A stretch of 63,632 nucleotides of DNA, filler included, from Reticulomyxa filosa (GCA_000512085.1; 18 parts of 18 records of this genome joined end to end with filler, not necessarily neighbours in it), one strand, 5' to 3'. Shown: positions 1,848 to 63,632, counted from the whole stretch's first letter. Numbers and translations: made by a program. Notes: generated by a model not told the origin, from the sequence alone.

Positions 1848-3803
1848 CCTTGGAATGAAATACATTGCAATGGCTTCACATTGAAATGGAATTTATTATC
1901 TTTCAACTTTTGACGAAACTGTTTGATATTGCGATGAGACAATGTATCAAGTAAAATTTGCAAAGATAAAGTTTTGGAAGTGCCAGGCTTGCCAATCAAT
2001 ATCATTGGTGTGGATGTAGCCACACAAAAAAACAATATGAATAAATTTTCCTTTAAATTCTTGTGCAATGCCACTCGAGCTGGTATTTCAAATGATCTTG
2101 ATAAATTCCTTATTTCAGTATCCAATAATTCTGAAAAAGGACGATTGCTTCTTTGATGCATTAGATTATTGTACATTGTTCTTCCCCTCTCATCCAATCG
2201 AAGATAATAACACAATCCCAATGCAATATTCAACGCCCTTCCTGCCCATGAATATTTTTTATCACTTTCTAACATTGGTCCGTGTTGTTGCATTAACCAA
2301 TGGAAAAAATTGAGACATCTGCTCACATCACGCAATGAGACAATGAATTCATTGGCCAAGTGTTTACGCAAAAGGCAGTGTGATGCAGCAATATCCTCTG
2401 CAATCTTAAATTCCCATTGTTGTATCTTTTTGTAAACAACAGTATTTTTATCAAATTTGCATTTGATTTGTTTGGTCATTGCTTGAATGTATTGCTTCTC
2501 ATCCAATTCGGACAATTGCCCAAAGGGCCAAACATATTCTTTCATGGTTTCACATAAAGGAACAACACGATACATCCATTTGCTTAATGGGTCGTTCTTA
2601 TTTGTTATGTCACTGGTTTGAGCTTTTCGGAGTCGATAAGGATTACATGCTGCAATAATCTTGATTTGATCATTGATTTTCACACCATCCAATCTACGAT
2701 CACAAATGAGTTCTTTGAACCATCCAATATCAGGAGATGTATTCACTTCATCTAAAAATATCCATATCTCTGTTTCATTGTCTTTGGATAATCGTCCATT
2801 GCAATCATCCATTTTTTCACATATTTCATGTCTTCCAAATCCTGCATGAACATCCACTGCAATCAATTGCACATTCACAACATGTCCCAAAAATTTTATC
2901 AAAGATGTTTTCCCACATCCAGTTTCACCCATCAAAATCACAGGAGTATTCGTTCGAATTTTCATAAAAACGGCAATCATTTTTAGAATATTGTCAAATG
3001 TCAACACATAATTCGACCATTCCTTGTCATTGCATAATTTGTTTACAATTTGATCATGAAGACTTTCTGTTGTTTCCACTTTTTTCTCTTCATATTCTTT
3101 CATTGTTCCCTGATCTGGAACTCCCAAAATGCGCAACAATAATCTCAATCGTTTTTCTTTTTCAGTTTGTGACTCTGATTCTTTTATCTTCAATTCCTTT
3201 TAATTTTTTTTATGTCATTGGAAATGTGAAAATGCGACATCCGAATAAAACAAAAATGTGCAAAACTTGCAAGATTAATTCCCTTTCTCTCAAGTCTTGT
3301 TGCCATTCGAATAAATAAAACTCCAACTTTTTGAATTCGTCCAATTGCCTTTGATTCACATTTTTTATGTCACTAATCAATACAGAAATACTTTCTCTAT
3401 CTTGATTAACCAAGAAATAATAGTCCTTGGAGTTATGCCATTTCTCACACAAATAAAACTCTTCTCGGCCAGTGCCTTCAATTTTTTGTTCCTTTTCTTC
3501 ATTCAGTTTTATGTGATTATATTGACAACAGCACGATATTGTGGCCACCTTAATTACTGATTTGGTAATTTCATGTTTCCACCACATTGACTTTTTATCA
3601 GCTTCTAAAAATTTTTTCTTCAAAAATTTCGACTGTACCAAGGGTAGAAATTGTTGATACAAATATTTGAAAAAAGAACGCTGATGTGCGGGACTTGAAT
3701 TCGCTATTTCATTGAAATGTTTTTCCATAAATCTTCTCATTTTACCCTTTTCAAGATCAGGCATGGTATCAGGATCAATATCTTGTTGTCTTTTTTCAGA
3801 TTG
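1848..3803 (-). CDS. RNF213/mysterin-like AAA+ ATPase, internal fragment (intron 3197-3266)
   Basis: Walker A GETGCGKT, Walker B IFLDEVN, IAACNPYR, MYRVVPL, VSLRDVSRC, LKENLF and a second P-loop GKPGTSKT, in the order of the RNF213 AAA module. A GTT..AAG intron joins ORFs 3210-3764 and 1848-3193 in frame. Confidence 0.9.
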
Positions 3804-4540
3804 NNNNNNNNNNNNNNNNNNNNNNNNNNNNNNNNNNNNNNNNNNNNTTAATTAATTAANNNNNNNNNNNNNNNNNNNNNNNNNNNNNNNNNNNNNNNNN
3901 NNNTCCATAAGCGTTCAGCCATGTGTGATAAGGGCTTGCCCTACATACTTTTGCTTTATTGTTAGTTAAATAATCTAAAATAAAAAGAAATCAGATTTTA
4001 CACTCCCAACAGCAAATTAAATTTGTACACATATTTGTTCTAGTTCAAAATTTCATTTTGGAAGCAGTTAAACATCTGTGTTTGCTTTGACGTATCATTC
4101 ATTCAAGCAAATAATCTTAACGTGTTTGTAAAAGAACCCGTCGAACCAAGAACTAACAACAATAAAAAATGTTAGGCTATAATAAGACTTGAAAACGCCA
4201 TCCGTAAATTAGGCGGTGGAGACGAGTAAACCAATCAAATTTTGATCTTTTTTGGTTGTATTGAGTTTTTTTACGTTATCAATATATAGCGAAATTTGTT
4301 TTCCACAAAAATTTGCAAATCGAGATTTCACTTCTAAGATTTGGCACTACTTGTATTATCAGTTTTTACACAAAAGTAAAAAAAAAATATATTGTTTGTT
4401 CAACGAGAGAAGCAATTTAATGATAATATTTGTTTCTTTGCTTTCAAAACAAGAATTTAATTACTTATTGGAATAAGAAGAAATATCATTCCAATAAGAA
4501 GTTGAAAAAGCTATTCGGTAGCCATTATCTATTAAAACCC

Positions 4541-6676
4541 TCAATGTTTTTGTGTGGTCATTTTATCAGTTGTTCCACAGTTGTACTGATAATTGTCTTC
4601 GTCTCCTCTTGGGATTTTCATATTGACAACTTCTTCGGCTGCAGTTGGATGTATCGCTGTGACGTTGTTAAAATCTTCCTTGGTTGCACCCATTTTGATT
4701 GCCACAGAAAACCCTTGAAGCATTTCGTCACAACCATCACCGATCATATGCAAACCGACCACCCGCTCTTCTTTTCCCACACACACCAGCTTCATATGTG
4801 CCATAATTTTATCTTGCGGATTTGTATAAACACCATATTTCAAACCTCGAAAATGTGACTCGAAAATCTTTATTTTTTTTTTTGAGGACCCCTATTCTAT
4901 GAACTGACAAGTTTTTCTAAAGAAAAAAGATTTTTTTTCAAACCTTGACTGGTTCAGGCAATTTATTGGCTTTCACCAATTCACGCGCGTGTTCTTCGGT
5001 ATGGCCAATCGTTCCAATCGGAGGATGACTAAAAATAACCGAGGGAACCAAGTGATAGTCCATATTGGCATTTTTGACTCCTCCAAATATACGGTCTGCC
5101 CATTTTCTTCCGGCTCGGATAGCGACTGGAGTTAAAGCGATCTTATCGTTGACATCTCCTAACGCGTAAATTCCTTTTTCATCAGTTTCTTCCCATTCAT
5201 TGGAAATAATAAATCCCCTCTTGTCTTGTTTGACAGATGTATGATTTAATCCGAGTTCGGTCGTTAGAGGACCTCTGCCAATGGCATAAATCACGCAATT
5301 AAAGCCTGTGAACTCTTGTTTGTGATGACTTTTCAAGCTGAGACTGTTGTCGTTGTTTTCAATCGCCGTGATTTCAGCATCGACAATCATCTTTACTCCG
5401 GAATGCAATAAAGCCTCGTGTACACCGCATTGTATCAATCGATCAAATCTAGTTTACGTTTGTTCACACAATATTTTTAATAATTCAACTGATTGCACAA
5501 ATATTCAACTGATCAAACAAAGTTTAACTTTCGCAATGGATGAGCGCCACGAATGAACATTGTCACATCCGAACCCATTTCTGCAAGGACTTGTGCCAAT
5601 TCAACAGCGATATATCCCGCACCGACAATTGCAGTTTTTTTTGGCAAATGATCCAATTTGTTGAAAAAATCATCCGACGTGTAAATATATTCTTTTCCCT
5701 TACAATTTAAACAAAATAAAATAAAATAAAGTAATACACAGTTCAATGGATATCGGGTCTCTCTTATGTTCTTTAATCACTTTTTTTTTTATTTTATTTT
5801 TTTTTAACTGGAATATCAGGAATGTATGGAAATCCGCCAACTGCAATTAAGATATGGTCGGCGGTGAACTTTCGACTGTCTTTGACACTTTGCACCACCT
5901 TCGGTGCGACAAATTTGGCATGAGAGAAGACATGTGTTACCCTTTAGGTTTTCACAAACACAGATACAATACACTTACCCACTTTCTCTGTCCCCTTTTT
6001 CATTTTGTTAACGTACAAAACAAAACTTGGAATCACTTAGATTTTTTTCATAAGCACGGTTCAGATATTCAACATGCTCGTTTCTTCGTTGCACTAAGCC
6101 CTTCCAATCCAATCGCAAATTGTCAAACTCAAAACCATAGTAACCAGCTTGATGTTTTAACGTGTATGCCACACTTGCTGCTGTCCACATGATCTGTTTT
6201 CCATCACATCGATCCAACAACAACAAAACTCAGTTCTATTGTGTGTCGTTCGTGCGGTTTGAGGTAGCTTAAACTTTTTTTGGAACACAGCCGACGTTGA
6301 CACATGTACCGCCTAAACGCTTCTCTTCAAATAGGATTACCTTTATTCATTCCCCCAATACACATCAACCCATACATTTTTTTTATACTCTTCCAAACAT
6401 TGGTCTTGTCTTAACTTTGGCACCGTATTGAGCGGCTCGTCTTGCAGATGCAATACCTCCTGATCCTCCGCCAATGACCTATGGATTTTGTTAGTGCACA
6501 CTCCTTCCATGAGCACTTAAAGAAACGAGGCTCTACTAAATCATAAAACAAACAATTAAGTCATATTTTTCTGGAGAAGTTGATTCTGAAGTCATGGATG
6601 CAGGCACACTTGAAAAATAATTGGATGATTGCGAAGATGCTTCTAAATGCCTTACAAAAGCACTAACTCTTAGCAT
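4541..6676 (-). CDS. GSR: Glutathione reductase, 8 exons
   Basis: Spliced product has YDLIVIGGGSGG (FAD), GGTCVNVGCVPKK (redox disulfide), GAGYIA (NADPH), LTPVAI, PSVIFSHPPIG and HPTAAEE. Introns 6479-6553, 6341-6415, 6194-6274, 5942-6026, 5699-5808, 5449-5528 and 4868-4943 all keep frame. Confidence 0.96.
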
Positions 6677-11108: not shown

Positions 11109-12644
11109 GTGGTTTTGAATATGAATCTAACAGATATTCTGCCTTACGCGGGCTTTGCTTTGAGTGAAATTGTTGTCCTAAGCTGTTGTATTTTTTCTTT
11201 GAAATGGATATATGACGATCGTTTTGCAGGATGGGAAATGCAAATAAAGAACAACACGGGGAGGTTGACGCTATATTTGCGACTGACCTTTTTTATGAGT
11301 AACTTATTTCTAACTTTGGTGCCTTTCCTTTTGATTAGTTAAAATCTCTTGTGAAAAGAGAGCAAAGAGGGGGAAGAAGGGGAGGGGGGCAGGAAAGCAA
11401 AAAAAAAAAAACCTCTATAAACCCCTTCTGCAAAAAAAAAAAAAAAAAAAAAAGTCAAGAAACAACCGTTCGAGATACCGTGGATAATATGTTGGAACGG
11501 ATTTACGATGTTCAATGTATGTATGTTGATATACTACATGCTATTAAAGACAAGAATAATGAAAGCATTTGTGCAAAGCACGTCGTCGTCAACGCCAACC
11601 CGCAAGGAGCGACAGTACGTGGCAATGAAGTATATTGACCGGACATTGTCATTGGTATTATTGACAATCTACATAGGATTGAATGTGGTGATAATGGCAT
11701 TCGAAAAAGGCAAGCGCAAGACGATATTTAGTTATTTGATCGGATTTGGCTATGACAACGGAGAGCATCACATAAACAAGTACCTGCACATAATAGCGAT
11801 AATATTTTTTGGATTGGTGTACAGTGGGATTGTAATTATGTGGGTAATGTTAATAGTCTTGCGCCATCTCGCAAAGCGCAATGCGGTCGAAGCCCAAAAA
11901 GAGAAGGAAAGATGGCAAAATTTTTCGTGCAATAGCAACCATGACGAAAACAACACTCTCGAAGGCAATAGCGACGAGGAGTCAGACATGTTGGACAAGA
12001 TACAAAAAAGTATGCCATTAAATTTGCACATTAACGACGAAAATTCGCAAATTGCAAGAGAAACTTCGCAGTCTTTTTCTTTGCCCTATTTCAACTTCAA
12101 AAGTCGATCTGTGTCGCAAGATCCTTGGCTATCCGTCACTCCTTATTCAAATCCTATCGTCTCTTCTGGACGCAAAAAAGAAACTCTTTCGCGCAATGTC
12201 AAAGTTTACAATACACGATTTCATTGCCCAAATATACGTATACTTATTTATATATGTATATACATATATGTATCTATGTATACATTTGTTCCAATTTTTT
12301 TTTTAAAACCCCCCCTCAACTTTTTTTGCTCCAAGTTAACACGATTAAGTCGTGCGGTTTTCATGTTGTGGATATATTTCACCTTATTGACTTTGGCGAT
12401 ACTCAAATGGAAAACTTTCCATCCGCTTCGCAATAAATATGCTAGCTTTGGAATTGGCGTTGTATACGTTTGCATTGTCAATTGGATTGCTTTAGTGTAT
12501 ATTACACCTTGGAGTCGCTATAGGTCTCCTCTACGTGGAAAGCGCCAAATACGTACTAGCGTATCCACCGCTTCGAAAAAAGTCAGACTTCATGCCTCCA
12601 AAAATGCTAATGACAACAACAAACCTGCTGTTAACGATAATTAA
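11109..12644 (+). CDS. Multi-pass membrane protein of unknown function (spliced)
   Basis: Several hydrophobic helices across ORFs 11109-11342 and 11508-12644, with a long polar loop; poly-A and AT-repeat tracts mark probable introns. Confidence 0.5.
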
Positions 12645-22525: not shown

Positions 22526-22589
<64 letters not shown>

Positions 22590-23489
22590 TATTGACAACG
22601 TGGACATTGAAACCAATGCTTCCAAAAGAAAAAAACAAATGACTACAGTCTACCTGAGAATGTGGCTATCGCAGAGGAGAAAAAAGCGAATCCAAAGAAA
22701 TGTGACTACTGTCGCATTCAAACGGCACAAAGCATGTACGATCAGTTGATCGTGTGCCGTGGCCAATACTCGTGCTTGTGTGTCCCAAAGTACTGGCAGC
22801 GATTGAGCTCCATGCATTTCTTGATTGTACCCTACAGGCACGTCACACAACTCATCGGACTCGAACAGAGCGGCAACAAAGAGCTTTCCGCTTTAAAATA
22901 TGAAATGCAAAAAATCATGGACTGTGTTGCTGACTACTACAGACCTGAAATGGTCAAACAAATTATTATATACATATACATACATATATATTGTATTGCA
23001 AAGTTATTACATACCGATAATTAATAACATAAACAGCTACTGTTTTTTGAAGACAATATGGATGTTGCTACCCACGGCGTGCTGAATGTGATATCGATCA
23101 ATGTCCATTTGCATATGAAACGATTGCAATTGGTCTTGAAAGAAATCGAGTCGGATTTCAACATTTCATTCGAAAAAGTAAAGTACCACTCCAAAACTAT
23201 TGCCTCTTATGTCACGCAGTCCTACGGCTATCTCGATATTGGCATGATGGATAAAACCAAGACCCGCTACATTCACGCTCTAACGCCGGCCAGAACCAAT
23301 ATCCCTAAAGATATCATGTCCAGGATCGTTTGCCAAGTGCTCGACTTGCCTTTTGATCGCTTCAGCAATTACAATCTTGCAAAAACAGAGTCTTCTGAAG
23401 AAGAAAATGACTACAGAGATGACATTACCTTGGCCAAACAAATTCTAGAAAAATTCCGAAAATTTGACCCTTTTATTACTAAAAAATAA
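21946..23489 (+). CDS. CWF19L1/Drn1-like protein (pseudo-metallophosphoesterase tail plus CwfJ C-terminal domain), 5' truncated
   Basis: LQPQYVFCG..YNAMRPF resembles the KPRYHF..YER.PY motif; CDYC..LIVCRGQYSCLCVPK..HFLIVPYRH resembles CwfJ_C_1. Intron 22953-23036 keeps frame; one frameshift at the A-run near 22630 (probably an assembly error). Confidence 0.72.
22501..22587 (+). repeat. (AAT)n microsatellite encoding poly-Asn
   Basis: About 29 triplets with one GAT interruption. Confidence 0.95.
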
Positions 23490-24640: not shown

Positions 24641-24676
<36 letters not shown>

Positions 24677-24681: not shown

Positions 24682-25228
24682 AGTTGCTGTCAGGTGTAAA
24701 TTTGGCAGCCTTTTTGATCATGTCGTCCATATCGGTGAGCAGTTGTTTATTTTCGGACATCAATCCTTCGACCATTGTTTCTACCTCGTTCAATTTGGCT
24801 TGTAATTCTTTGACTTTTTCTTTTAGCTTTGGGTTTTCCACACACACATCTTGCATTTCGTGTCCGACCAATGTGGTTTGAACTTCTTTGTGCTCGCGCG
24901 GACGGTTGACCAGTGTTTCCCAACGACTGTTTGCTTCCTGCAATTGTTGCTTCACCGTTTCCAAGACAAGTTGGTTGCTTTTGTATTGTGCAGACAGGTC
25001 TTCAATTTCCTGCTGTTTCGACTGACTCGTCTTCTCACTTGATAACTTCAATGCCTTCAAAGCCGCATTGGCGTCGCTCTTTTCTTGCACTATCTCGATT
25101 CGCAACTTTTCTTCTTCCATTTGCAATTGCTGTATCTTTTCTTCTTTTTCTCCCATTCGTTCCGTCATTTGTCCCAAACTATTTGTCAACTGAAAACAAA
25201 CAAACGAGCAATTATATATGCATACACA

Positions 25229-25264
<36 letters not shown>

Positions 25265-26863
25265 CATTATATAAATATACATATATGTATATATGTATAT
25301 TTATATAATTGATTGTGATGACAACACAAAACAGTTTTATTTTGTTTCAAGTGGCTTTCAATTTGTGATTCCAATTGCGATTTTGCAGTCGAAAATTCCT
25401 CTTTGTTGGTTTTCATTTCCTCATTCAATTGCATCTTTTCTGCTGTCAATTCCTCAATTTTGTTGTCTTTTGCCTTAATTGTTTCTCCCATCTCCCCAAC
25501 TGTCTTTGTCATCTTTTTTTTTTTTTTTTAAAAAAAAAAATTCATATCCACGTATTATGCACAATTGTAGTGTTTTAATGTGTCACACAAGAGAACTTGA
25601 TCAATGCGATCATTTCGACTTGTGAGCTGTTGTTTGAGTGTCTCGTTTTCGAGTTTCATTTTTTCGAGCTGTTTTTGCAAATCGCCAATTGTACTTTTGT
25701 CAAGTGCCGAACGATCATCTTGCTCAGCAACTTTATTTTCCAGCTTTATTCATTTATTTTTATATTTTGTTTATTTTTTGCACTATCGTGACATGACTGT
25801 CAGTTGCAAAAAAAAAAAAAAAAAAAAAACGTAGTTTGTCCGAAAATGGACAACACAATTGAAACAAATGAAAAAACTTGAGTTTTGAGTTTTTCCAAGG
25901 AATCGACAGTTTCTGAGAGTCTTTCCACTTTGTTTTCAAACTCCAATTTCGTCCCTGCAAATTGCAGCTTCATTTGATCAATGTTGCTATTTAACTCCTC
26001 AATCGTCTTCTTTCGGCTCGATGATTGCTGTTCTAATTTTTCCACGCTTTGTTCCAACTTTGAGTATTGCGTTACATTATATTGCATTGCATTATATTGT
26101 ATTATATTGTATTATTGTAAGTGAATAGATTTTTTATGGACATGCACGAAAGAATTGGATAGGAAGAGGAAGAGACCAACACGTTCAAAACTCTACCAAG
26201 CGACAATGAAAATAGACACGAGACAAAAGACAAACCTTTAATTTTTCGGTTTCCAAAGAGCCAATTTGCGATTTGAAGTCCGTGGCTTGCTTTTGGCAAA
26301 CAATTTTTTGTTCGGCCATTTCCTCTTTCAATGTGTCCATGTGTTTGTTTAAATTGAAGACAGTTTGTTTTTGTGTTTCAAATTGTTTCTCCGATTCACT
26401 TACTTTCTCATTTAACTTTTTTTTTTTTTTTTGGAAAAATATATTATTATTTGGATATTATTATTGTTATTGCCATTGGTCATTTTTTTTTTTTTTGGAC
26501 ACTCATAGATGCGAGTGCAAAAAAAAAAAAAAATTATGTACATATAAATAAATAGATTTGGAGCGAAACTCTTTCAATAATTTGCTTGTCAGCGCCACTT
26601 TTTTGGTTTAGCAAATTCTCGACATTTTGTAACTCTTTAGTCAAACGAGTTTTCTCTTGGCTCAATGTGTCGGCTTGTGTAGACAAAGTTTTGACGCGGT
26701 CATTGGCCTCTTTCAATTGTCTTTTCATCGCTACATTGTCTTCTTGTACGGGCTGCAATGAGAGTTGCAATTTTTGCAATTCAAACGATTGCTCTTTGCA
26801 TTGCACCTTCAGAGTCTCTCTCTCTTTTTCCCACTCCGTTATTACATCTTCTTTTTCACTCAA
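24677..26863 (-). CDS. Long coiled-coil protein, multi-exon, 5' truncated
   Basis: Heptad-rich E/K/Q/L exons (26534-26863, about 26270-26410, 25800-26087, about 25610-25745, 25267-25512, 24677-25190) separated by homopolymer-rich introns. Confidence 0.75.
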
Positions 26864-30366: not shown

Positions 30367-30523
30367 NNNNNNNNNNNNNNNNNNNNNNNNNNNNNNNNNN
30401 NNNNNNNNNNTTAATTAATTAANNNNNNNNNNNNNNNNNNNNNNNNNNNNNNNNNNNNNNNNNNNNCCTTAACTTGACGCGTATGGCAGATTAGACTCTC
30501 TCAATTTATTTGCATTTAGCTAC

Positions 30524-31254: not shown

Positions 31255-31274
31255 TTCTTTTAATTGTTTAACGT

Positions 31275-32756: not shown

Positions 32757-34182
32757 GAAAAAGAGAAGATGATGAAAACGAGAATATACAAAATCTTTTT
32801 ATTGGTCGAAGCAAATGACTCGATGCCCGTTACTTCAATGGAATTATTCTTGACTTTGGAGAGAATCTATGAAAGCATGGACAACGCTCCAATTGTAACT
32901 GCAGCAGCATAGTAAACCTACGCACAAGCAAGAGAAAGTAAAGTAACTTCTTCCAGCACATCACACGCACGCATTCGATTGGCGACAGGACCTTCCACAG
33001 CTAATAGCATCATATCTTCGCCATTGTGTTTATGGCGCATAACGTTGAACTTGACATCATGTTCGCGGCGAATGTCTGACAAAACGGACCTTTTCAAGCG
33101 CAGCATCACGCGATGAGGCAAAAAGTAGATTGTCTCATTGGCAGCTGCTTGTGCAACAGCTTGCGACACTTGAGACCTCAATTGGAAAATTTCGCCATAC
33201 TTGCCCTCAAATCGTATGTGTGACGGGTTTTCATGATGGAACTGAATACGAGGATCTATTATTTCCACAAACAATGCAATTCCAAAACACACACGTTTTT
33301 ATATGTGTATCTCGATTGTGTAAGTTATTCGGATATATTGCTGTCAACCACAATCGAGTGTGTCAGCTGTAACCTTCAAACTGCGGTGCAATTTTTTTTT
33401 GGTAGCGCTCATCGACGTACAAATGGAAAGTCTATTCAAAGTACATTTATAATAATAAGCCGATATTTAACATTGTGCTGTCCCCCCCTCCCCCCTTTTT
33501 CTTTTCACATCTTTTTTTTTTTTTAGTAGTGATTTTCAACTCAACTGTAAAATATTTGTCCGGGATTCGATTCAGCGCTGTTTCAACTGCACGTTTTTCG
33601 TTCACCAATGAACGATCAATAGTGATCCCATTTTCGTACCCACTAGGTAACACACGCCAAAAAAAAAAAGAAAAATCGAAAAGAACGAAATACATAAAAA
33701 AAAAAAAAAAGTACCCTTTTTGTACGATGTAATTTTTCAATCGTTCGATCAATACTGTTCGTCCTCCATTTGTGGCAAGGTCACGACGCTCACATTCGGT
33801 TTTCAGCTCAGCTGTCTGTTGGTGTTATTTCCCCACAAAGGAAAAAAAAAAAAAAAGATAAACAAAAAATTAAAACTGGGAAAGTTCAACTTTTTCGTGG
33901 TGTTGTTTGCAAGAGAGAAAGAAAGAAACACAAAACGGTCAAGTCTTCTGGTGACACCCATCGAGGTTTGATTGAGGCATGGAAGTTCCTTTTTGTAACG
34001 ATGGCCAATGTCATGCAAGGCTGTGATGATGACACCCGCGCACTACTCGAGAGTGGCTTTTTTTGAGATTTTACAATAAACAATCTTATCGTATGTATTT
34101 TACGCTTTCCTTGGCACATGTATCTCTTGGCGTTTTTTGCAATTGATTTTCTTGCAAGATGAAGAGCTCGCAACGAAGCCAT
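32757..34182 (-). CDS. Putative mitochondrial SAP-domain protein with degenerate KH-like domain(s), 3' truncated
   Basis: R/K/S-rich acid-free leader ending KRNFHAS. Splicing 33816-33936 gives EDLTTAELKTECERRDLATNGGRTVLIERLKNY (SAP consensus). LSDIRREHDVKFNV..LAVEGPVANRMRACDVLEE resembles the C-terminal half of a KH domain. Confidence 0.65.
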
Positions 34183-39819: not shown

Positions 39820-41707
39820 ATGTTAAAACGATCAAAAAATCAAGTTGTGTCAGTGGAGCACATTCGCACACGCATAGTAGATCTTGTGTCAAAACATGAA
39901 CCAAATAAGCTTCAACATATTGATGCGTTGATGGAAAAATGGCACGGCAAAGAAAACGATCTTTTGAAAACTCTTTGTGAAGGATACAAAGAACAATGTT
40001 AAAAACAAATATAAACTAAAAAACCAAGTTTTTGATAAAGAAGAGAAGGAGAAAATATTACATTAAAATTGCCCTCCTGTCCACCCTTTTTTTTTTGTTC
40101 GATCCAGCAGCCAAAGCAAAAAAAGTAAATATTTGCTGTATATGAACGTATAATAAAAAATACAGTCACGAAAATGGATGTAGTATCAATCAAAGAAAAA
40201 TATTCAATTGGTTCAAAGCTTGGCACGTTAAGTTGGACAAAAGAAGATGTATTGTTGATTACAATTTTTGTGTTATTATTATGTTCAAAATTTGTAAAAG
40301 ATAGAATGTATGAAAAATATTAGTTTTTGATATTAATAAAATTGTCAATAGAGGCGGGTTTGCGGAAGTACGAAAATGTAAAGACCGAACAACTAATACA
40401 TTGTATGCATTAAAAATTATCAATAAAAAAAATCTTGACGAAAGAGATTTGGTTACTTTGCAATCTGAAGTGCGAATCATGCGACAAGTTATTTTTTTTT
40501 TTCTATCTTTTTTTTTTGGAACAAATACAAAAAAATTGTATGCATACATGTATAAAAAAAGGTAAAACACGATTTCATAGTGACATTACATGATGTATTT
40601 GACAGTAAAACGAAAATGTGTTTGGTGTTGGATTTATTGGAAGGTGGAGAACTGTTTGATCGTATTATTCAACACGGTCATTTCACAGAAAAAAATTCTG
40701 CACAATGCTTCACTCAACTGATATCTGCTTTGGCTTATTTGCATGAAAAACAAATTGTTCATCGAGATCTAAAGGTTCTTGTTATTTTGGTTGTTTTTTT
40801 TTTTTGCAAACATTGTTATAATTATTGTATTATGCATGTATATCTCCATATTGTAAAAAAAAATAAATTGCAATTAATACGTTATCAGAATTTTTAATAT
40901 ATTATTCAACAAAAAAAACTACAAATAATATAAGAATAGCCAGAAAACTTGCTGTTTGCAAAGAAGTGTTCAGATCAACAGAAATTTGTTGCTGTAGAAT
41001 GGAATATGAAATTAATTGATTTTGGGTTGGCAGGATGTTGTAAAGATAAAGGACTGACAACACCCTGTGGTACCCCCAATTACGTTGCTCCTGAAATTTT
41101 AAGGAGACAGCCCTATGGTACTTCTGTAGATATGTGGTCTGCAGGCGTCATTCTTTATATCATGTTCAGCTTCTTTTTGTTTTGTTTGTGACGTATATAT
41201 GCATGCATATATACATCTTATATGTTTTTTTTGTAAATGTGTAAGGTGAATTTTTGGTTGATTGTTGTGGGTTAAAAGATTGTGCGGATTTCCTCCATTT
41301 TACGATGAAAATGACGATATGAACAAATTGTACAAAAAAATTAAAAATGCGGATTTCGACATGCCAAGCCCTTATTGGGATAGTGTGACGCCAGAAGCAA
41401 AAGATTTGGTGAAGAAACTTTTGGAACCCAACCCAAAAAAACGCATTACAGCTTCCTTGGCGTTAGAACACGAGTGGTTGCAAGGCAAGGCATCGGATAA
41501 AAAACTTTCCGAAGAGCAAATGTTTCAATTGAAGAGATTTCAGTATGTCAAGAGACTTCGAGTTTAGTTTATTTTTCTCCTATCTTCAATATGGATAAAA
41601 CACAAACAAACAATAAAAATATTGTGTGATGGGGGAAAAAAAAACAAAAGCGTGGAGTTCGATGTGTATTGGCGGTACTGAGACTGATCGATGCACTCAA
41701 ACCATGA
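39820..41707 (+). CDS. CaMK1-family Ser/Thr protein kinase with a probable N-terminal helical domain
   Basis: [65 protein letters not shown] and a basic CaM-binding-like tail. Introns 40227-40351, 40488-40561, 40775-40939, 41164-41278 and 41562-41650. Kinase ATG at 40174; an upstream exon joins in frame via 39998-40165. Confidence 0.93.
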
Positions 41708-42144: not shown

Positions 42145-43415
42145 TTAATATTCACCATATAACAAAGAAGAATTGCGATCATTCAAAAAGGAAAGAGAAG
42201 TGACTTTTTTGGTACGCTGTCCATCAGCACTAAGTTTTGGACGCACTTTCTTCTCCGGTTGTTTTTGACAACGTTTTTGGATACCACAATAACAAGATAC
42301 ACCAATCAAAAACAACATAACTGCCATGACAATTAACAACCACCAATCTTTGATAAAAAAAGAAGTCGTTTCATTGGTTCCACCACTGCCAATGGGCTGT
42401 TTTGTTGGCGAAGGAGTAGGTATTTTTGCACCACAAGAAGTACACGTCTGTGACATGATTTCACAATAAGCAGTCCAATCAGTATCAATTGCCCAGCTGC
42501 TGTAATCTATATTCGTATCGAATCAAAACAAAGAGCTTTCTAACATTGTCGTTGCTCATGCAGTGCTGTTTGAATATATTTGTTATACAATAAAAAAAGA
42601 CCACACCCTCAAGACAATTGCGTTGATTCTTGTAAATTTCGCGATTTTGTACCAAATACAGTCCGTTGAGATAGCGACGGGGATCAACATCTACGTCAAA
42701 GCACTGAATGTTGGTGGAGGTGATACGGTTATAGGACAAATCATAGTACACAAAAAAAGGATTCTCTTCGTTGGCAACAGAGGTATTGCAGCGTGAATAG
42801 CAAGGAAACAAGCCCGTGAAAAGGTTGAAAGACAAATCTAAATGATTGATACACAATGGATTGGTGTCATTCCACTGCCAATTAATTCCAAAGCTACTAC
42901 TTGAATTTGCCAAACTCAAATTGTGAAATGTTATGCCACTCAAGAATGTAATAAATGAATTTGGATTAGTCTACAATTCAATTTTTTTTTTTTTTTTTTT
43001 AATGACACAAAATTGTTGAATATATGCGTGTGTGTGTGTATTGTGTATTAATTACTCTTTGTTTATCATATTACCTAATGTGTGCACACAAAAAAAAAAA
43101 AAAAAAAACAGATACGTAACTCCAACAGTTAACCAGACATGTTCAAATGAGGCCACTGGAAAGTATAGATATTCGGCTGTATCTTGGTTCAGCTCTGTGA
43201 GTGTGTAGTTCAGTCGGCTAAAGTCTAAAATTAGCAACGGATTGTAGGAGAGATCAATATCCAGCAAACGCTCCAGCTGCAAAAAATTATATGGGACATA
43301 ACCACTCAATCGATTGTTACGTGCGTGCAGCTTTTGTAACTGTGTCGATAAACTTAGGTTATTCAGATATTGCGGCATCGGGCCAATTAATTCGTTGTAA
43401 CTTAGATTCAAATAC

Positions 43416-43417: not shown

Positions 43418-43447
<30 letters not shown>

Positions 43448-43558: not shown

Positions 43559-44291
43559 AAAAAAAAAAAAAAATTTGCCTCGGTAATGTCCAATTGTAAT
43601 AACAACTTCTCGAATGCAGCGACGAATTGAGTGGATGTGGACACCGGACATAGTGTCAAAGAGATGACACGGTAGCCGCGTAGATTTAATGTCACGCTTT
43701 GTTGAAAAAATATCTCGCCTGTTCCACTCGTTCCTGGAATGCAAATCAATGGCACTTTCACTGAAGGGCCTGTGTCATAGTAACTCCACGTTTCATTTTC
43801 GTCCACTGTTATCTTTTTATTTGTTTAGTTTATTTGTTATTTCATTGCTTCAATTATTGACAAAATATTCATATAATTCCTTTTTTTTTTTTTTTTGGCA
43901 AATTAAATCGAGCCATTTCGCTTGTCCATTTTTTTTATTTGGATATTATGTTTTAATTCGGCTTTTTTTTTGTTTTTTTTTTTTTTTCATTCGCTCTCAA
44001 TTTGTCTCACAAACTGTGTTTTTAGGATACTTGCTGAGAAACATTTTGTAGTTTTCTGACTTTAGATAGGGGATTGCGTCTTTCTCGGCTCGCCGAGAGA
44101 CGTTCAAATGTGGATTGAACGTTAAGTCGACCATTGACTTCACTGAAGATGTTAAATTGCCGAGCATTTCAAATTCTGCTGGCACTGTTGGTCAATTTTT
44201 TTTTTTTATATATCAAAATGTAGGCAATTCAAAGTGGTTGTCACACGCCAAAGCTGACGCCACTGTCCTCCTTGTGATCTTTACTTTGCAT
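43559..44291 (-). CDS. SPG21: Maspardin (alpha/beta-hydrolase fold), 3' truncated
   Basis: YKMFLSKYPKNT|ITVDENETWSYYDTGPSVKVPLICIPGTSGTGEIFFQQ..LRGYRVISL matches the maspardin N-terminus; first exon tentative. Confidence 0.85.
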
Positions 44292-50585: not shown

Positions 50586-52067
50586 TTACAAATAAATTTT
50601 TTCAAAGAGGTCTTGTTCACATGTGACATTGGAATAAAAGGAGTCAGGATCGCAGTAATCACTACTTTCTGTGCTCATTTTAGCGCTTTTTAACTCTTGC
50701 CATCGCATCTGTCGTTGTGTGTAGTTCTTCAAGACAAAGTCATTCCCAAATTCATGATACAATCGAGTGTCTCTGACGCGAACGATGACATTGTCTACTC
50801 TCATCCAAAAGCGACATAAGACTAAAAAACATTGAGGCATAACTCGACACCGTACATAACATTGGGATGTCCCATTATCGCTCAGTTCATCTTCAAATAG
50901 TTGCTCAAAGCATTGAAACAATATCCGATCCTTGCGCATCAGCAGTTCGATATTCAGTCGCTCTTTCACTTTGTCATTACCACTCACTACTTTAGGAACG
51001 CCGCCAGGTTCTTTCGTGTGTACATAATTACCTTGATAATTCGAGGTGAATGTCCAGTCATAATTGCCTTCGATTGTCTCTATCTCATCAGGCTGCATTA
51101 CACAAATCAAAAAAAAAAAATAAAAAAAAAAAAAGTGTGTATATATTGATAGTTTCGAATGACAAAAGAAAGAAAGAAAGAAAAATAGAGATCATTCTTT
51201 CGTTTTACACTTCCAAAAACACGTTCAAACCAATCAATCAATCAATCAATCAATTATACAAATGAAAAAAAGCCGTGAATAGCACCCTACTTAACATTGA
51301 CAATTTGCGACCACTCCTGTGCGTACTGTACTTTGACAGGGTCCTTTGGGACGCCCATACACAATCACAACGCTTTGACTACCATAAAGTATACATTCAA
51401 GCCACTTTCGTGCTGGAGTCGTAGATAACTGTTACTAAACACCATTTCCGGCAGCGACGGCAAGCCAATCTTTTGACAGTTGTTTTCATTTGTTTGGGTG
51501 CGACATGTGAACCAAATATGTCAACCAATCAAAAAAAACCCAAAAAAAAAAAAAAAAAGGAGGTGAAACTGTCGAGGCAATATCTTTCAGCTCGACTTGT
51601 CCCGCCATCGGCTTATGCATTTTTGCAAATGTCCATCCGCGATATTCAATCCCCCAATGTCTTGACGCAAGTTGAAATGTCTCTTTTCCGGTTGGCGATT
51701 TGGGCGACGTAACTTCCACTTTGTCATCCGTTTCTTGTGTGTTTGCCACTGAAGATTTTTCATCTTCTCTTCGTGTGCTTTCTCCGCTCATGTCGGTACT
51801 AGGCTTGGGGCCTTTTGGAGACTGATATGCCATGCTTCGTGTTGGCAACTTTGTAAAGGCCGTTGTTTTGTGATTTGTTTGGGGCGCTGTCGTCATTGGG
51901 TATTTGCTTGTGCTTGGAGTGTTGGGAATAAAAATATTTTTGGGCATTGTGTTGGCTGTTATTGACATTGGGTTAGCTGTGTTGGGAACTCGAGATGATT
52001 GAACATATGACGTTGGTAAGCGCTTTGTCGGAGAGTCCACCTCTTCTGATGTTTTATGCTTAGACAT
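50586..52067 (-). CDS. TIPRL: TIP41-like PP2A regulator with a long Ser/Thr/Pro-rich N-terminal extension
   Basis: GLPSLPEMVFSNSYLRLQH, YDWTFTSNYQG, LFEDELSDNG and RVMPQCFLVLCRFWMRVDNVIVRVRDTRLYHEF. Confidence 0.92.
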
Positions 52068-53306: not shown

Positions 53307-54527
53307 AAATCTCAAAACAATATACGTCCATTTTTCTGTCAATGTGAATGCTCAACAATTGCGGTAAATATGCGAAACGTTCAATAACAGACAATCGCTT
53401 TCAAATGGGGATGAAAAGTCAGAAGAGCAAGCCAAGAAAACCAAGCGACAGATCAGAGACAAAATTACGTTGATGAAATTAAAAAATGTCAGCAACAAGA
53501 GATATACAATCTTGAATTGAATAAGATTGTGTTATTAAAGAATGTTCCAGTGCAGGAAAGTGAGAAGGAGATCAAAGAAACGTTGGAAGAATATGGATAT
53601 TCAGTTGAACAAGTGAAAAGATTCAACAAAATGCCAATGATAATGATCACGCTATCCAAAGCAGAAGAGATGATGAAGATCCTCCAAGACAAGAACATTC
53701 AGATTGGATACTCAATGGCACAAGCTGTCATATTTGACAAGAACAGATCAAGGCCCAAGCATCACTTCAAGTAATGTCGAAACTGTTATAAATTGAACCA
53801 CATTGCTACAGAAGAGAAAGATTTGCAAGTATTGTGGACTGAAAAACCACGAAGCATCGAAATGTCGCATAAGAATGATCCGAGTCGACATCGATGTGTA
53901 TTGTGCAAGAATAATCATCCAAGTGATTCTGTGCAATGTGAAGTTATTCGCAAGGCAAGAGAAAAACTTGGGATTAAATTGACAAGAAAGGAGAACGCTT
54001 TCATACAAAAGAAAGCTTCATCTCCAAAATCTATCTAAATTAAAAAGAGACATAAAAATAAGACTAATCAGCAATTTTACACTGATGAAGTCAAGCAATC
54101 AAAGAATAAGAGAAAGAGAAAGAATAGAAACAAAAATAAAAATAAGGTGGTAGAACAACATATTAAATACTGGCATGGATATGAATATATGAACAGTAAT
54201 TTGTTGAGCCTCCAGAATAATATCAACGAACTTTATTCCAAGGCCCAAATATTAGAATAAAATCTGCAGTATAAGCAGCCGCATATATGCCTACTGCAAG
54301 AAGGTTTTCGGTCGAAGAAGAAGGACATAGATTATAATTTCCAGCATCTTTATGTTCATCATTGGATTGAGACAGGAAGATCTGGAGTGTTATGTCGAAG
54401 AGATTTGCATTCATTATAAGATCATTCAATAACATGCTTGATACATTTAATGATTTAGTTATGAATCGTGTTGGGTGGAAATTTCATGTCCTGATCAAAA
54501 GAAACCGATATTATTCTGCAGTTTCTA
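53307..54527 (+). mobile_element. Decayed non-LTR retrotransposon (LINE): ORF1 with three Zn knuckles and the start of an APE endonuclease
   Basis: *CRNCYKLNH, CKYCGLKNHEASKC (CX2CX4HX4C) and CVLCKNNHPSDSVQC (CX2CX3HX6C); then SLQNNINELYSK, PHICLLQE and WVEISCPDQKKPILFCSF. Stops and frameshifts throughout. Confidence 0.82.
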
Positions 54528-55093: not shown

Positions 55094-57486
55094 TTACTGA
55101 GTGAACACTTGATAGACGTTGGAATACATTGTCGATAACGAGCAGTCGACAGTAAGAATATTGTGGACGACAAAAAATGAACTTTCATTCATTGGCATTC
55201 CATTTTCCAATAATTTGACCAAATTGTTGGATCCATCTAATTGTACAAGCACTTGTGTATTCCATTGAGTATACCCAGCGTTGATTGGGATTACTAATTC
55301 AAATTCCAAGAAATGTGTTTGTATGACTTGGGCCGATCGTACAAAGACAAAGGGATAGTCTTTGACTTGCAAGACTTGCATTTCGATTTGTTCAGTTGGC
55401 CAATATTGGGAATGCAAATTGCGAAAGCCATTATGATGTTCTCCCACAACCATGCCCAAGGCCAGCAAAGCAGTGTTCAACAAGGAGGAGCCAGTGGTTT
55501 TGTCACAATCGGAAAAGGTATGTTGCACCACCCCACTGGAGTCAATCAAAGGCACGGACAAATTGTTGTATTTGTTCATGGGCACCTTCACCCCAAATTT
55601 GTTGATTAAAAAATTGCGCGACATTTCCACACGTTGTTCCACATCGGAATCGGATATGCCCACATCGGTCATGAATGGCAGACATTGCATGGCAGCAACT
55701 GTGTACATTGCCGTGGCAAAGCAAACACCAGTGTGTGGTGTTTGGAAATATGTGCCATTGTATTGCTCATCGAGCGACCAGAACCGATTGTTATACAGTT
55801 TGCTTAGTCCATTTTCACACACAAATTCTTTCACATCCGATTCATTTAACCAAACATAAGCAAAAGCCGCTGCCCAATTATCACGAGCAGGACTATCAAT
55901 TTGTAACAATCCATTATAATTTTTTTTTTTTTTTTTTTTATGTTTATTATTATTGTTATTATTTTTGTTTGTTCGAAAAGGGGACCCCTTTTTGTAACTG
56001 AATTTTTTTAAAGGAACTTTTAAAAAAGTTGAAGTTCAAAAAAAAAAAGGGACCCCCCCTCCTCCTCCTCTTTTCTCACAAGTGCAGAACTAGACCTATT
56101 CGGAGCTCCCCAAGGCCCAACAGAGGCAAAGCCTGAGAAATCCAACAGCCAGCCCGCCTTCAGGTGTTGTTTGGACCATGGCTGGTCTTGCAGTCCGCTG
56201 TCCTCGTCCAAGTAAATCCGTTTGTCCTGGAAATACAAGCCTCGAACCCATCCGCCCAACCCAATCGTCTCATTCTCAAAGCTGGTTTCGTCCACAAAAT
56301 AATCCCGAAATTTCTTGGTCGCGGACTTCAATTGTCTGTTCCATGTATTAGCATTATCATTTTTTTTTTTTTTTTTTTTTTGGGAGTTTACTTTGCAAAA
56401 AAAAAAGAAGGGAAGATTTATAGATAATTGAGAGAACAAACACAAAGTGAAAACAACTGTTGAGGAGTTGAGGTTTGATTATTCGCGACAGCGACTTTGA
56501 AAGTGAAAGCAATGTTTTGGTGTTGATTGCAAATGGTGAACACTTGGAAGGGTTCACAAGAAATGCCTCCTTGTCGATTGCGCTGGTCCAATTGCACGTT
56601 GGCCATATGCGTCAGCAAGTCGTCCAGCGTCCAATGGATGTCCGACGCGAACGAAAAGCCTTGGTCCGAGTACGTCATGTCATAGCTCAGCGCTTCGTAC
56701 AATGCCATCATATGCACCAATTGTCCACTGTACATTATGTTCTGGAACCTCACCGGATCTATACGACCATTTTTTTTTTTTTTTTTTTTTTTTTTAAGAA
56801 GGGGGGGGGGGAGGACATTCATGCATGTACATACAATATAAAATGTCATACCTGGCCAAGAAGTACTGGCGTTCCATAAGATATTGTCTTTGTGTTGAGG
56901 ATCCAACGCATACAGACAACCACCGGCTTCAAGGGTGCATGTTTGATAACCTTTTGTTCAATTCACAGAACACACTCAATCACACAGCTTTTTTTACACC
57001 CAATCAAATCTTTATATATGTATACATATATGTATGTATACGTATGTGTGCATGTGTCTTTTTTTTTTTTTCCTGCATGTTATAAAACTAAACTATTTGG
57101 ACCCCACCAATAATCGATGAAATTCCATGTCGTGTTGTCCAACATGCGCTGGATCGTGTTGTTCGCTGTCTTGATACACACCTCACGGTATGCTGGCGTT
57201 TGCACGCACAACGCCGATGCACCGTATGTCATAAACGCTAGCGAATATCTCACCGAAGAAAAGTCCAACTGTGCGGTGTTTCGCTCTAGTAAATACTCGG
57301 GTAACCATTCTCCGGCTGTCAAATATGAAAAGTATGCCAGCGTCAGTTGTACTGACAGCTGCTCGTCTGTCAACGAAACGTTTCGATACAATGTCACATT
57401 GGCAAAGAAGACGGAAAATGCAAAAAAATATCATTAATATAGCATTGCCCTACTGCAAACAGAGCCCAGATTACCACCGAAAACAT
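55094..57486 (-). CDS. Linalool dehydratase/isomerase (LinD/Ldi)-like protein, multi-exon, with C-terminal extension
   Basis: RYSLAFMTYG..TPAYR, WPDPVRFQNIMYSGQL..LYE and GGISCEPFQVFTICNQ align with LinD YELAFIGYG, DPIEKENIMYKGHL and GIVCEPDNYFVQCNS. Hydrophobic leader; exact N-terminus obscured by a T-run. Confidence 0.8.
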
Positions 57487-57702: not shown

Positions 57703-60355
57703 ATGGCTCAAACACAAAATGGACACATTCCCGAAAAATTCTGGGAAATGGCAAAAAAATACAACTGGAGTTTGTCAAAAAAGCCGCAGTCTTCTCAATT
57801 CGGCAACACAGTTAAGAAGGAAAACAGCAGGTACGGGAACACTCCGAAAGAAAACTAAAGAAAGGGTTGCGACTTCCCTCTTATGCGCGATGTACAGGAG
57901 TCGACAGCAACAGCAACGAGTCCAATAATCTTATCCACCTGCAAGCAATCAAGTGCTAAGACAAGTTTGGGCCATAGAAAGAGTCTGTCGGGAACGAAAG
58001 GACTTATCAAAAGTGGAGAGGTAGCAACCCCCCAAAAAATCCGATCATCAAATAAAGGAAACGCTGACGCAGACAATTTTTTTTCGAGTGTTTCCAAGTC
58101 ACGCGTGAACGAAAAAATGGAAGACGAGAAAGGAGAAAATGAAAAGAAAAAGCAATCAAAAAAAAAAAAGAAGAAGAAGAAAAAGAAAAAGAAAAAGATA
58201 ATGACGATGACAATGAAAGCAGTTCCTATTCTGCGGCGAAGCGTCCAAGGAAATTGTTCCATCATCGAAAGTATTTGTGCGACTCATCTTCGGACAGTGA
58301 TACAAACAAGAAGGAACAAACAAGTACATTAGGACAAGAGAAGACATTAGTGAATTCCAATAAGTCAAACCGGCGAACGAATAGCCATGAAGACATGGAC
58401 GGCGTGATTGCAGCGGAGACAACAATAACAACGAAAGGTATCAACAATAGTAATAATAATAATAATAATAATAACAGCAATGGTGATAATCATAGCAATG
58501 ACAACGACAGTGAGACTGAAACGGAGAGCGAACATGATTTCGATCGACTCTTTTTATTTCAATCAAATAAAAACACTGCCAGCTCTTTTGGAGAGATGTC
58601 CAACAAGGACGAGCCAGGTGCAAGCCAACCCGTGAAAAGTCCGCAGCAACAAAAACAAGAACAATTGGGATGTTCGACATATGACTCGGTGCCAAACCAT
58701 GAAAGGTGGCCACTATCGCAGCCTACTTGCCCTGCCAATGAAGTGGTTGACATGCAGCCTACCACTTATGCCACCACTGCGACAAAAGATAGTGACGTCA
58801 CGATGCCTTCCGACACGACCACACTTCCGAAGAAAATGTTGTCGGATGCATGGTCCATGAATCATGCTCTCCCGTTGGTGCCGATTGACACGGGCAATGA
58901 CTCGTCGTCATCATCATTGGAGCATAATATGGACACCGAATCAAATCGGTTCAATATGCATGTAGACAGCAATACACATGCCGATCGAAATGATACGTAT
59001 AACGATGGCGATGACGGCGATGCTCCCGGCTCCACACATGACACTGTCCAAAGCCATGACACCCATATGTCGGGCGCGTTGGACGACCACGCGTCTTTGG
59101 ATGGCAGTCGCCATCGTGCAAGACACGACTCAAAAGAGAAAGAGCAGGAGGAAGAGGAACATGTGGGGTCGTCGGCGCCCTCGTTTGATTTTTCAAAGCG
59201 CAAAGCGACCGCCAAGAGATCGTATAAGAAACGCGTAGTGTGTGCCGAAAACGTGCAACATAAACAATTTCTTAAGCAACGAGACCAAGTTTGTGTGTAT
59301 TTGTTTGTCTCTTGTGTGCCCTTGTCCCTTGTTTTACGTACGTATACTTGTATGTATACTTGATGATGGACTTTTGCAGGGGGAAAAAAAAACAAGACAA
59401 AACAAAAGCTATATACATGAATTTGCTCGCTTTTTTTTTTTTTTTTTTACATTGCCGCTCAAAAAGTATACGAAACAGTTCTTTAAAACGTTTAATGAAT
59501 TTGCTTTTGATAACAAGTTTGTGTTGGGAGACAATATTGTCATTGAATGGAGTAATACACTGAACAAAACCGCTGGAACATGCCAATATATTGTTAAGTT
59601 GTTTTTTTTTTTCTTTTTGGAAGGAAAAAAAACCATTTTTATTTGGTTGGAATAGAAAGACGGCTATGGAAAAAGAAAAGTTAGAATACAACTGGCTGCA
59701 AAAGTGCTGGATTGTACATGTTGCGTGACAACACACATTGAATATGTATACGTGCTTGTTTGTTTTTTTTTTACATCATCTTCAAATTATTGAACCCGAC
59801 TTTGTTGGCTTGTAACACAGATCGGCTTAAAAAAACTCTGTGCCATGAACTGTGCCACGCCATGCAATGGATTTATGATGGTGTTATCAAACCTCCTCAT
59901 GGACAGATTTTTCGCAAGTGGGCAGACTGCTGCGAAAATGTATTTAGCGATATCACTGTGACCACACGTCATAGCTATGAAATACACTACAAATTTCGAT
60001 GGGAATGTGAAAACTGCTCCACTACGTTGAGCTGTTTTTTTTTCCTAACCTTCTGGCCGTAGAAATTGTTGTGAAATGTTGTCGAAAATATAGGTACGGC
60101 AGACATTCCAAGTCGATCGACCCTGCTACGCATCGTTGTGGAGTTTGCAAAGGTTCATTGAAATTTTTGGGAAACTTCAAAAAGGACGGAACTTTAGGAG
60201 AGGTGCGAAAAAACCCAAGCGCGTATGCTATTTTTGTGAAAGAGCACTTTCGTGAAATCCGTCAACGATATCCTGCTGCTTCAATGGGGGAAGTAATGAG
60301 GCTTGTAGGTGAATTGTACAAAACTCAAAAAAGTACCGAGGGTTCGAAGCATTGA
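57703..60355 (+). CDS. GCNA: GCNA/ACRC-like protein (disordered acidic region + SprT metalloprotease + Zn finger + HMG box)
   Basis: FNEFAFDNK, IEWSNTLNKTAGTC, RLKKTLCHELCHA (HExxH), PHGQIFRKWA, HSYEIHYKFRWECENC, YGRHSKSID..CGVCKG and PSAYAIFVKEHF..MGEVMRLVGELYK. Introns 59289-59466, 59593-59655, 59720-59820 and 60026-60093; A-run frameshift near 58165. Confidence 0.85.
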
Positions 60356-62751: not shown

Positions 62752-63128
62752 TTAAAGCCTACAAATATACGACTGGCTTCGCGTAATGTACCGAACCCAG
62801 AGATAAGGGCTGTAGCCCTTATCTGGTTGAACTACACGCACATATCGAATTTGCAAATTGGACACATTGTACATGGGAATTTCAAAATTCATGCTTATGG
62901 GTCCAATGACCTTACGAGCAGAGTCATTTTTTTGCTGTTCTTGAAAGGTGATGTTAATAGGTAAAGCCAGTTCAGAACCTCCACGAACTTTGTTAATGTT
63001 CCATATCACTTTGCGACTTTTTAAGTCAAATTCAACTTTTTGGCCACTCATACTTGAGCTCAGGACTGGAGTTACGCTAAGATTGAAACAAATATCAAAA
63101 CAAAAAGGGGGGTGGGATCCTTGTTCAC

Positions 63129-63160
<32 letters not shown>

Positions 63161-63632
63161 CAAACGTTTGGCAAATGGAAGGAATAGGCAATTCTACAAC
63201 AACACCCGTGCTCGTATTTTGTTTAGGAAAATCTGTCCTAATTTTGATGATTAATTCGGCCTTGTATTCATTCAGCAATTTAAAGGATGGAAAAATGCAA
63301 AATGGGTGACGAAATTCGTTGGTCACACGATAGTTAATGAGAATAAACTCTCCTTCGGGAGGGGTAAAGTTCAGGGTGCGCGTTTGTTCAAACTCCTCTG
63401 CCTGCACACACTCGTGGAAATTTATGTCATCCAACACGACGCCACCATACACTACGCTTCTGCCGCGTTTCCCGATTACCAAATCTCCGTTCAGAGCCAG
63501 TTTTAGTTCGGGGCTTCCAGTCAAATACGATTTCATTTGGATCGTACCGTCGATTGATGAACTTAGTGGAGTCCCCTTTTTTCCATCAAGAAGGTCTTTT
63601 TAACCCCTATTGCAAAAAGGAGAGAGAGGGGG
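62752..63632 (-). CDS. AP4M1: AP-4 complex mu subunit, C-terminal mu-homology domain
   Basis: GTIQMKSYLTGSPELKLALN, LDDINFHECV, FTPPEGEFILINYR, GPISMNFEIPMYNVSNLQIRY and WVRYITRSQSYICRL; intron 63077-63165. Confidence 0.9.

Follow-up and report, generated by a model that had tools for sequence, protein, structure and literature searches.

The DNA analysed here (the window, 63,632 nucleotides (nt)) is made up of 18 contigs joined by N spacers, nearly all of them from the foraminiferan Reticulomyxa filosa, and all the statistics below are drawn from it alone. One glutathione reductase exon is 100% identical to a Reticulomyxa filosa protein, and exons of the kinase and Ldi genes described below point to the same organism. 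Its protein-coding genes are interrupted by short introns, and the subject of this report is how the ends of these introns may be recognized. An initial annotation had proposed that the introns are defined by hairpins, in which the two termini of an intron, 5′ and 3′, base-pair and close at the splice sites. To fix the intron set, contigs were read in three frames and frame-keeping GT/GC–AG pairs were listed, which gave 45 complete introns of 63–203 nt spread over 16 genes. Twenty-one of these (the anchored set) are placed by homologous proteins or profile (Pfam) positions: seven in a glutathione reductase gene (GSR), five in a CaM-kinase gene, four in a linalool dehydratase/isomerase-family (Ldi) gene, four in a SprT/GCNA gene and one in an adaptor subunit gene. 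Boundaries of the remaining 24 come from the reading frame or from partial Pfam support, and where several donors fitted, the choice was made by eye. Because such a choice can bias motif counts, the motif results were repeated on the 21 anchored introns. GT/GC–AG ends were a search constraint imposed in modelling; GT–AG removal restores conserved protein, with the 21 anchored junctions collinear with homologues or Pfam. All introns cited in the initial annotation were found where it had placed them; those in GSR, the kinase, Ldi and GCNA have junctions consistent with homologous proteins. The counts omit introns truncated at a contig end (10 listed), a gene of uncertain structure near 45900–46400 and a degraded reductase-like region near 29100–29550.

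Donor and acceptor signals

GTT is present at 39 of the 45 donors, and six introns start with GTTTGT. Splitting the donors by the last exon base separates two classes. The 35 donors that follow a non-G exon end have U at +3 in 34 cases, G at +6 in 17 and G at +5 in four, and the 10 that follow an exon G have U at +3 in five and G at +5 in five (Fisher p 0.001 and 0.017). Among the 21 anchored introns, the non-G class has U at +3 in 17/17 and G at +6 in 9/17. Both classes are seen across the window, for example at donors 40227, 6415, 59593, 51295 and 53068.

The donors were scored against the universal U1 5′ end as printed in PMC4856993, from which the U1 of R. filosa may differ, with 245 GT sites as decoys. 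In the normal register, real donors taken together match U1 no better than decoy GT sites (p 0.79); of the 10 that follow an exon G, 8 fit this register. In the +1 register they match far better than the decoys (p 8e-12), and also better than GTT-only decoys (p 7e-7); the match is retained on intron-only positions (p 0.0008) and in the 21 anchored introns alone (p 2e-7). Shifted and bulged (+2/+3) pairings with U1 score equally (5.64 and 5.74). An Rfam scan of the window gave no matches, small nuclear RNAs included. The donor-class split is more general than the hairpins and is probably also more novel.

From start to end, introns become poorer in U (0.48 to 0.33) and richer in A (0.25 to 0.43). 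The initial annotation had suggested that RNA structure may stand in for a polypyrimidine tract or branch-point consensus, and the absence of both was borne out: the pyrimidine share at −15 to −4 is 0.40, compared with 0.50 in intron bodies, and is at least 0.75 in 4/45 introns, and a branch-point consensus complementary to U2 showed no enrichment over shuffles in this small set of 45. The acceptors end in AAG (19), TAG (14) or CAG (12), and 35 of the 45 carry A at −4. A single AG lies within −21 to −3 where 24.6 would be expected (1 versus 11.5 in the anchored subset). Exclusion of AG upstream of the acceptor is a mark of scanning from the branch point. All classes of intron have this zone of about 20 nt without AG, and all have a specific donor motif.

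The public gene models differ from homology-supported splice sites at 2/4 covered junctions in GSR, 3/3 in the kinase and 2/2 in Ldi. P0001, P0121 and P0130, the public models of 4541–6595, 40174–41707 and 55094–57430, run on into intron sequence or are spliced elsewhere than homologues support. Since homology-supported sites are missed, mis-prediction is probably widespread in the R. filosa proteome. In the portion of PMC11347168 Table S4 covering species C to V, 12% of the introns annotated in R. filosa (6244 of 50607) are scored ‘major’, among the lowest values there; these scores rest on the public models, which are wrong here at several junctions, and section 7 of that source does not state whether matrices were pooled.

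Pairing between intron ends

If the two ends of an intron are complementary to each other, they should pair better than ends swapped between introns, a comparison that the initial annotation had put forward. The outcome was weak for all 45 introns (p 0.039, 0.030 and 0.0085 in windows of 20, 25 and 30 nt, with no significant excess at 12 or 15 nt; p 0.12, 0.12 and 0.03 without the best intron), clear for the 21 anchored introns (p 0.0002–0.001 at 20–30 nt; p 0.003–0.02 without the best intron) and absent from the other 24. The 38 introns not cited in the initial annotation equal the swap null (p 0.44–0.62), the 14 anchored introns among the uncited gave p 0.22–0.27, and the anchored genes are those from which the hairpin idea arose. 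Permutation within genes, applied to 40 introns, gave p 0.005, 0.003 and 0.0002; own ends paired better than other ends in 7/7 genes listed, and the signal was carried by the anchored genes.

The excess is concentrated in few introns. End duplexes of −10 kcal/mol or stronger occur in 7/45 introns, compared with 3.0 expected from swaps, and those of −14 kcal/mol or stronger in two, compared with 0.3; the top seven duplexes exceed the top seven of random pairings (p 0.005). The own-end excess amounts to about four introns of 45, and in 35/45 the end duplex is weaker than −8 kcal/mol. The signal fades when one window is shifted away from the intron ends. With multiple testing taken into account, none of the 17 pairing offsets is exceptional (best p 0.013). 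Stem strength shows no significant relation to donor strength (rho −0.16), pyrimidine content (0.17) or length (−0.23). End pairs across exons (n=29) are weaker than the null at p 0.07–0.14. A small subset of introns truly has complementary ends; the class as a whole does not.

Whole introns were folded as well. Against dinucleotide shuffles, the control that the initial annotation had also named, introns have a mean z of −0.80, compared with 0.03 in 90 intergenic windows (p 0.003) and −0.14 in 70 exon windows (p 0.026), and z is below −2 in 11/45 introns versus 5/90 intergenic windows. Strong inverted repeats, located by a custom scan, are present in 8/45 introns, compared with 3/270 matched intergenic windows; most of them are internal, and many consist of U and A runs. 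The mismatches in the 11 strongest repeats (3 G–U, 0 A–C, 12 other) are too few for selection on the RNA to be demonstrable from them. In 9/10 introns having both, a U run precedes an A run, and A and T runs of at least 8 are 4–6 times denser within introns than between genes. Internal perfect or near-perfect inverted repeats, of the kind that template switching leaves, lie in introns at 25266–25309, 33311–33358, 55980–56056 and 26483–26532.

That hairpins define a class of introns, replacing the pyrimidine tract and branch point as in the nonconventional introns of euglenids, appears very unlikely from these data. The absence of those two signals is what such a class would show, as are the own-end excess in the anchored genes and one case of reversed polarity (described below). 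Yet an end stem is lacking in most introns, the register varies, predicted end distances are not shortened and exceed 30 in eight introns, arm compositions do not co-vary across introns (rho −0.10), and the strict AG-free zone and specific donor motif run through all classes.

A possible helper role for end stems

The data fit best with ordinary spliceosomal introns that have divergent signals, a minority of them structured, in which end stems would be accessory only; for this reading as a whole the chances seem about even. An ordinary U2-type spliceosome would remove these GT–AG introns, and their ends would be found by sequence: on the 5′ side a GTT donor, on the 3′ side the first AG that follows an A-rich stretch devoid of AG. 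U1 may pair with most donors one base out of register, either shifted or bulged at +2/+3, and the acceptor may be chosen with little contribution from U2AF65, by scanning from an unmarked branch point that would lie 20–30 nt upstream. End stems could arise easily from the U tracts close to the donor and the A tracts close to the acceptor; once formed, stems might help to match the right two sites and would need unwinding before catalysis. Because pairing of the two ends is predicted in only a minority of introns, hairpins are likely an occasional helper and not intron-defining. We hold the sequence-defined, minority-paired picture with high confidence, and a little over half of that confidence extends to a helper role of the stems.

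Several results weigh against this reading. The swap test gave p 0.39–0.81 in the 24 non-anchored introns, and within-gene permutation gave p 0.31, 0.28 and 0.10 in the 20 introns outside the anchored genes. A reversed 3′ arm still keeps part of the excess (p 0.019), and 8/10 of the strongest duplexes start at +1 to +3, so that the donor is covered. When the shuffles preserve homopolymer runs, introns do not fold significantly better than intergenic DNA (p 0.21), and antisense folding equals that of the sense strand (p 0.70). The splice sites are not brought closer in the predicted folds, the path from +1 to −1 being 17.0 versus 17.6 with shuffled interiors, 16.5 with intergenic filler and 19.5 in half-chimeras, none significantly different. 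On the side of the sequence signals, a changed R. filosa U1, as in Entamoeba, could give GTT without a shift, and 24/45 boundaries rest on frame or partial Pfam support with GT/GC–AG imposed, the junctions being deduced from sequence.

The main rival reading takes end stems for a functionless by-product of U-rich donors, A-rich acceptors, homopolymer slippage and template switching, with sequence signals alone mattering; U-rich donors would presumably serve a TIA-1/Nam8-type enhancer. Such an origin is possible, though less probable than not. It agrees with the lack of excess in the 24 non-anchored and the 38 uncited introns, of a fixed register and of a shortened end distance, with the equal folding of the antisense strand, and with strong inverted repeats that are mostly internal or homopolymeric in introns dense in A/T runs; the hairpin finding was moreover selected out of a very large scan. 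However, real pairs come out ahead even though swapping leaves the U-to-A gradient intact, and they do so within genes too; the anchored set without its best intron and the top-seven comparison remain significant; and the strongest stem, in the kinase gene, includes 3 G–C and 2 G–U pairs in perfect register and folds well on the sense strand in particular.

The kinase and glutathione reductase stems

The last kinase intron (41562–41650) has the strongest end-to-end stem in the set, and it is as the initial annotation described it: 18 Watson–Crick (WC) and 2 G–U pairs of 23, ungapped, with +1 opposite −1. Its end duplex of −20.2 kcal/mol exceeds all 1980 swapped pairs (best swap −18.3), and the whole-intron fold has a z of −5.9 on the sense strand versus −1.8 on the antisense strand. 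When the intron is folded with its flanks (−32.6 kcal/mol, z −4.6), the stem is predicted to continue past the two splice sites and to include exon sequence on either side. Retention would bring a stop two codons into the intron, so that the protein ends at KRLRV and the C-terminal 13-residue segment of the kinase is dropped.

This arrangement raises the alternative that the strongest stems act as brakes, burying donor and acceptor and regulating intron retention, for example to remove the kinase C-terminal segment. We regard it as unlikely, though possible for the kinase intron. The extension of the predicted stem across both splice sites, the early stop on retention and the inclusion of +1 to +3 in 8/10 of the strongest duplexes are in line with a brake. 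Against it, the spliced C-terminus is present in the homologues P0122, P0123 and P0125–P0128, and the regulatory role of that segment is presumed by analogy with CaM kinases.

The same intron has a near-perfect terminal inverted repeat, as would be expected if the introns descended from Introner-like transposons bearing such repeats, an origin that the initial annotation had also offered. That origin is extremely improbable here. No intron family exists in the window, where the 36 non-self BLAST matches are all low-complexity pieces of 16–69 nt; junction repeats are at chance (0.84 vs 0.82), and the arms are unrelated between introns. The position of 41562–41650 is common to the paralogues P0124 and P0129, at 62–69% identity. 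Read-through residues at that site in the two paralogues are Phe, Ile and Leu, which indicates U-rich intron starts of differing sequence. In the genome-wide survey of the PMC9860276 supplement, R. filosa is scored 0 for Introners. A further mark of Introners would be recent, lineage-specific positions; three introns have older ones, the corresponding site being read through in P0124, P0129 and P0006.

The remaining examples in the initial annotation pair at offsets of 2, 2, 4 and 6 bases, with duplexes of −8 to −12 kcal/mol. In GSR, the reversed polarity of 5699–5808, whose position is common to P0006, is genuine (22 WC and 2 G–U of 30, offset 6) and lies within low-complexity A/T repeats. 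Of the two GSR introns said to fold largely as stems, 5449–5528 gains nothing over shuffles (whole fold z +0.6); 6194–6274 does fold well (z −2.1), but its ends are not joined by the stem. Kinase intron 40775–40939 can pair its ends as described (17 WC and 2 G–U of 24, offset 2, duplex −10.6), but the whole-intron z is −0.2 and most of the U tract's pairing is with an A tract inside the intron. End pairing in Ldi intron 56759–56851 holds for 8 WC and 2 G–U of 12 ungapped, or 12 pairs with the bulge, and the minimum-energy fold instead pairs the 5′ end locally. In SprT/GCNA intron 59720–59820, GTTGCG and TGTAAC form six pairs (4 WC and 2 G–U; −12.0 with a second helix), with a whole-intron z of +0.4. 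The two counter-examples that had been named hold, with end duplexes of −4.2 in the maspardin-like intron and −4.0 in the AP4M1 intron (Table 1).

Table 1. Coordinates of the genes and introns discussed, with end duplexes in kcal/mol.
Feature	Coordinates	Strand	Remark
AAA-domain gene intron, first of the span in the initial annotation	3197..3266	−	donor from reading frame alone
Glutathione reductase gene (GSR)	4541..6595	−	7 introns, every junction collinear with homologues
GSR intron 6	5449..5528	−	end duplex −8.1
GSR intron 5	5699..5808	−	A-rich 5′ arm complementary to U-rich 3′ arm
GSR intron 3	6194..6274	−	stem internal
Coiled-coil gene intron, ends unpaired	25190..25332	−	perfect 20-bp internal palindrome 25266–25309
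Coiled-coil gene intron, end stem −10.3	25744..25877	−	boundaries from reading frame alone
SAP-domain gene intron 1	33816..33936	−	end duplex −10.1
CaM-kinase gene	40174–41707	+	5 introns, homology-anchored
Kinase intron 1	40227..40351	+	GTTAAG donor, shifted class; weak end duplex −5.2
Kinase intron 2	40488..40561	+	U-rich start and A-rich end, yet end duplex just −2.6
Kinase intron 3	40775..40939	+	5′ arm rich in U, 3′ arm in A; exon ends in G, donor of the canonical class
Kinase intron 4	41164..41278	+	internal palindromes, no end stem
Kinase last intron	41562..41650	+	strongest end-to-end stem
LRR gene intron	42971..43120	−	U-tract/A-tract stem −10.9; donor uncertain
Maspardin-like gene intron, A-rich	43813..44014	−	counter-example; predicted end distance 38; no Pfam match
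Ldi-family intron 4	55893..56095	−	strong internal inverted repeat 55980–56056, no end stem
Ldi-family intron 2	56759..56851	−	12-pair end helix, one bulge, −8.8
Ldi-family intron 1	56951..57093	−	second strongest end duplex, −14.2; not among the initial examples
SprT/GCNA intron 3	59720..59820	+	GTTGCG donor, 6-pair end helix
Adaptor medium-subunit intron	63077..63165	−	counter-example; U-rich 3′ region

Other features of the window

The Ldi-family gene (55094–57430, minus strand), with four introns in a foraminiferan, has just two other homologues that were found; acquisition through gene transfer is possible. The contig 30467–32656 is without introns, carries an outer-membrane β-barrel gene (Pfam OMP_b-brl) and was excluded from the intron set; it is bacterial in appearance, possibly a symbiont or contaminant. 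What we take to be a maspardin-like gene has a possible GC donor (GAG/GC, then a U run) at a contig end (43579, minus strand). A candidate intron at 12204–12335 (plus strand) is in frame and stop-free and may be retained or mis-called. In otherwise open genes, apparent frameshifts occur at homopolymer runs (about 7170, 22610–22660, 57440 and 58160); they are probably assembly errors, and run lengths within introns may therefore be off too. The middle exon of a TIP41-family gene has an in-frame TGA (51365–51367, minus strand), from a sequencing error or a pseudogene. A degraded open reading frame at 53307–54527, with a cysteine-histidine knuckle-like stretch, resembles by eye a retrotransposon fragment. 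A metagenome scan with P0001 for foraminiferan genomic copies found none; a metagenome alignment scan gave 80 loci of 36–43% identity, all single uninterrupted matches, which were not used.

Discussion

The hairpin claim by itself describes a minority effect and a phenomenon already known. If the donor and acceptor signals are read correctly, an intron-rich eukaryote with out-of-register donors and tractless acceptors would be a natural test of the extent to which spliceosomal recognition can drift, and would also test whether RNA structure takes over as U2AF signals fade. A bolder generalization is that foraminifera have a rewired spliceosome, with a default donor one base off register, an acceptor used without pyrimidine tract or U2AF65, and pairing of U-rich with A-rich ends as a genome-wide aid that brings each donor together with its proper acceptor in a considerable part of roughly 50,000 introns; we consider it doubtful. 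Foraminiferan introns are called canonical in the sections of PMC3079666 and PMC6783311 that deal with them, and the available text of PMC13746701, PMC12730881, PMC4815078 and PMC10245619 adds nothing on foraminiferan splice signals. The literature search returned no account of splice signals, end pairing or the status of U2AF in R. filosa, nor of these signals in foraminifera; the genome paper (Glockner 2014) may describe them.

Among known systems, the structured minority resembles the (AC)m-(GT)n introns of zebrafish, which bypass U2AF2 (Lin et al. 2016, PMC4691745). Both are spliceosomal and a minority class, with simple complementary repeats near both ends, a weak pyrimidine tract and folds more stable than shuffles. 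The R. filosa introns differ in using U and A tracts, with stems of −8 to −20 versus about −90 kcal/mol that often lie over the donor, and in a cross-exon avoidance that is not significant.

In human, shifted and bulged 5′ splice site/U1 registers are a rare exception, whereas in R. filosa the shifted class fits most donors. A shifted register was reportedly described by Roca and Krainer in 2009, as cited by Tan et al. in 2016. The R. filosa donors resemble the human shifted or bulged 5′ splice sites set out in Tan et al. 2016 (PMC4856993) in having the consensus displaced by one base toward the intron interior, with a non-G exon end and G at +6. Entamoeba, as presented in bioRxiv 10.1101/2022.06.08.495308, has GUUUGU donors with a co-evolved U1 and likewise U at +3 in most donors, but it has one near-universal word, G at +5 and few introns, whereas in intron-rich R. 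filosa GTTTGT is a minority word and the main class has G at +6.

Pairing that brings the ends together is also found in the nonconventional introns of euglenids and diplonemids, which, in the sections of PMC4770533 and PMC12621601 concerned, have no fixed GT–AG borders and as a class a fixed register; the R. filosa introns have GT–AG borders, a variable register and mostly unpaired ends. With Introners, as outlined in Gozashti et al. 2022 (PMC9860276), one intron has inverted repeats at its ends in common, and the set differs in lacking a family and target-site repeats and in its old positions. Structured introns and shifted donors are each already known; the two together, in an intron-rich protist where most donors are of the shifted type, would be a new combination.

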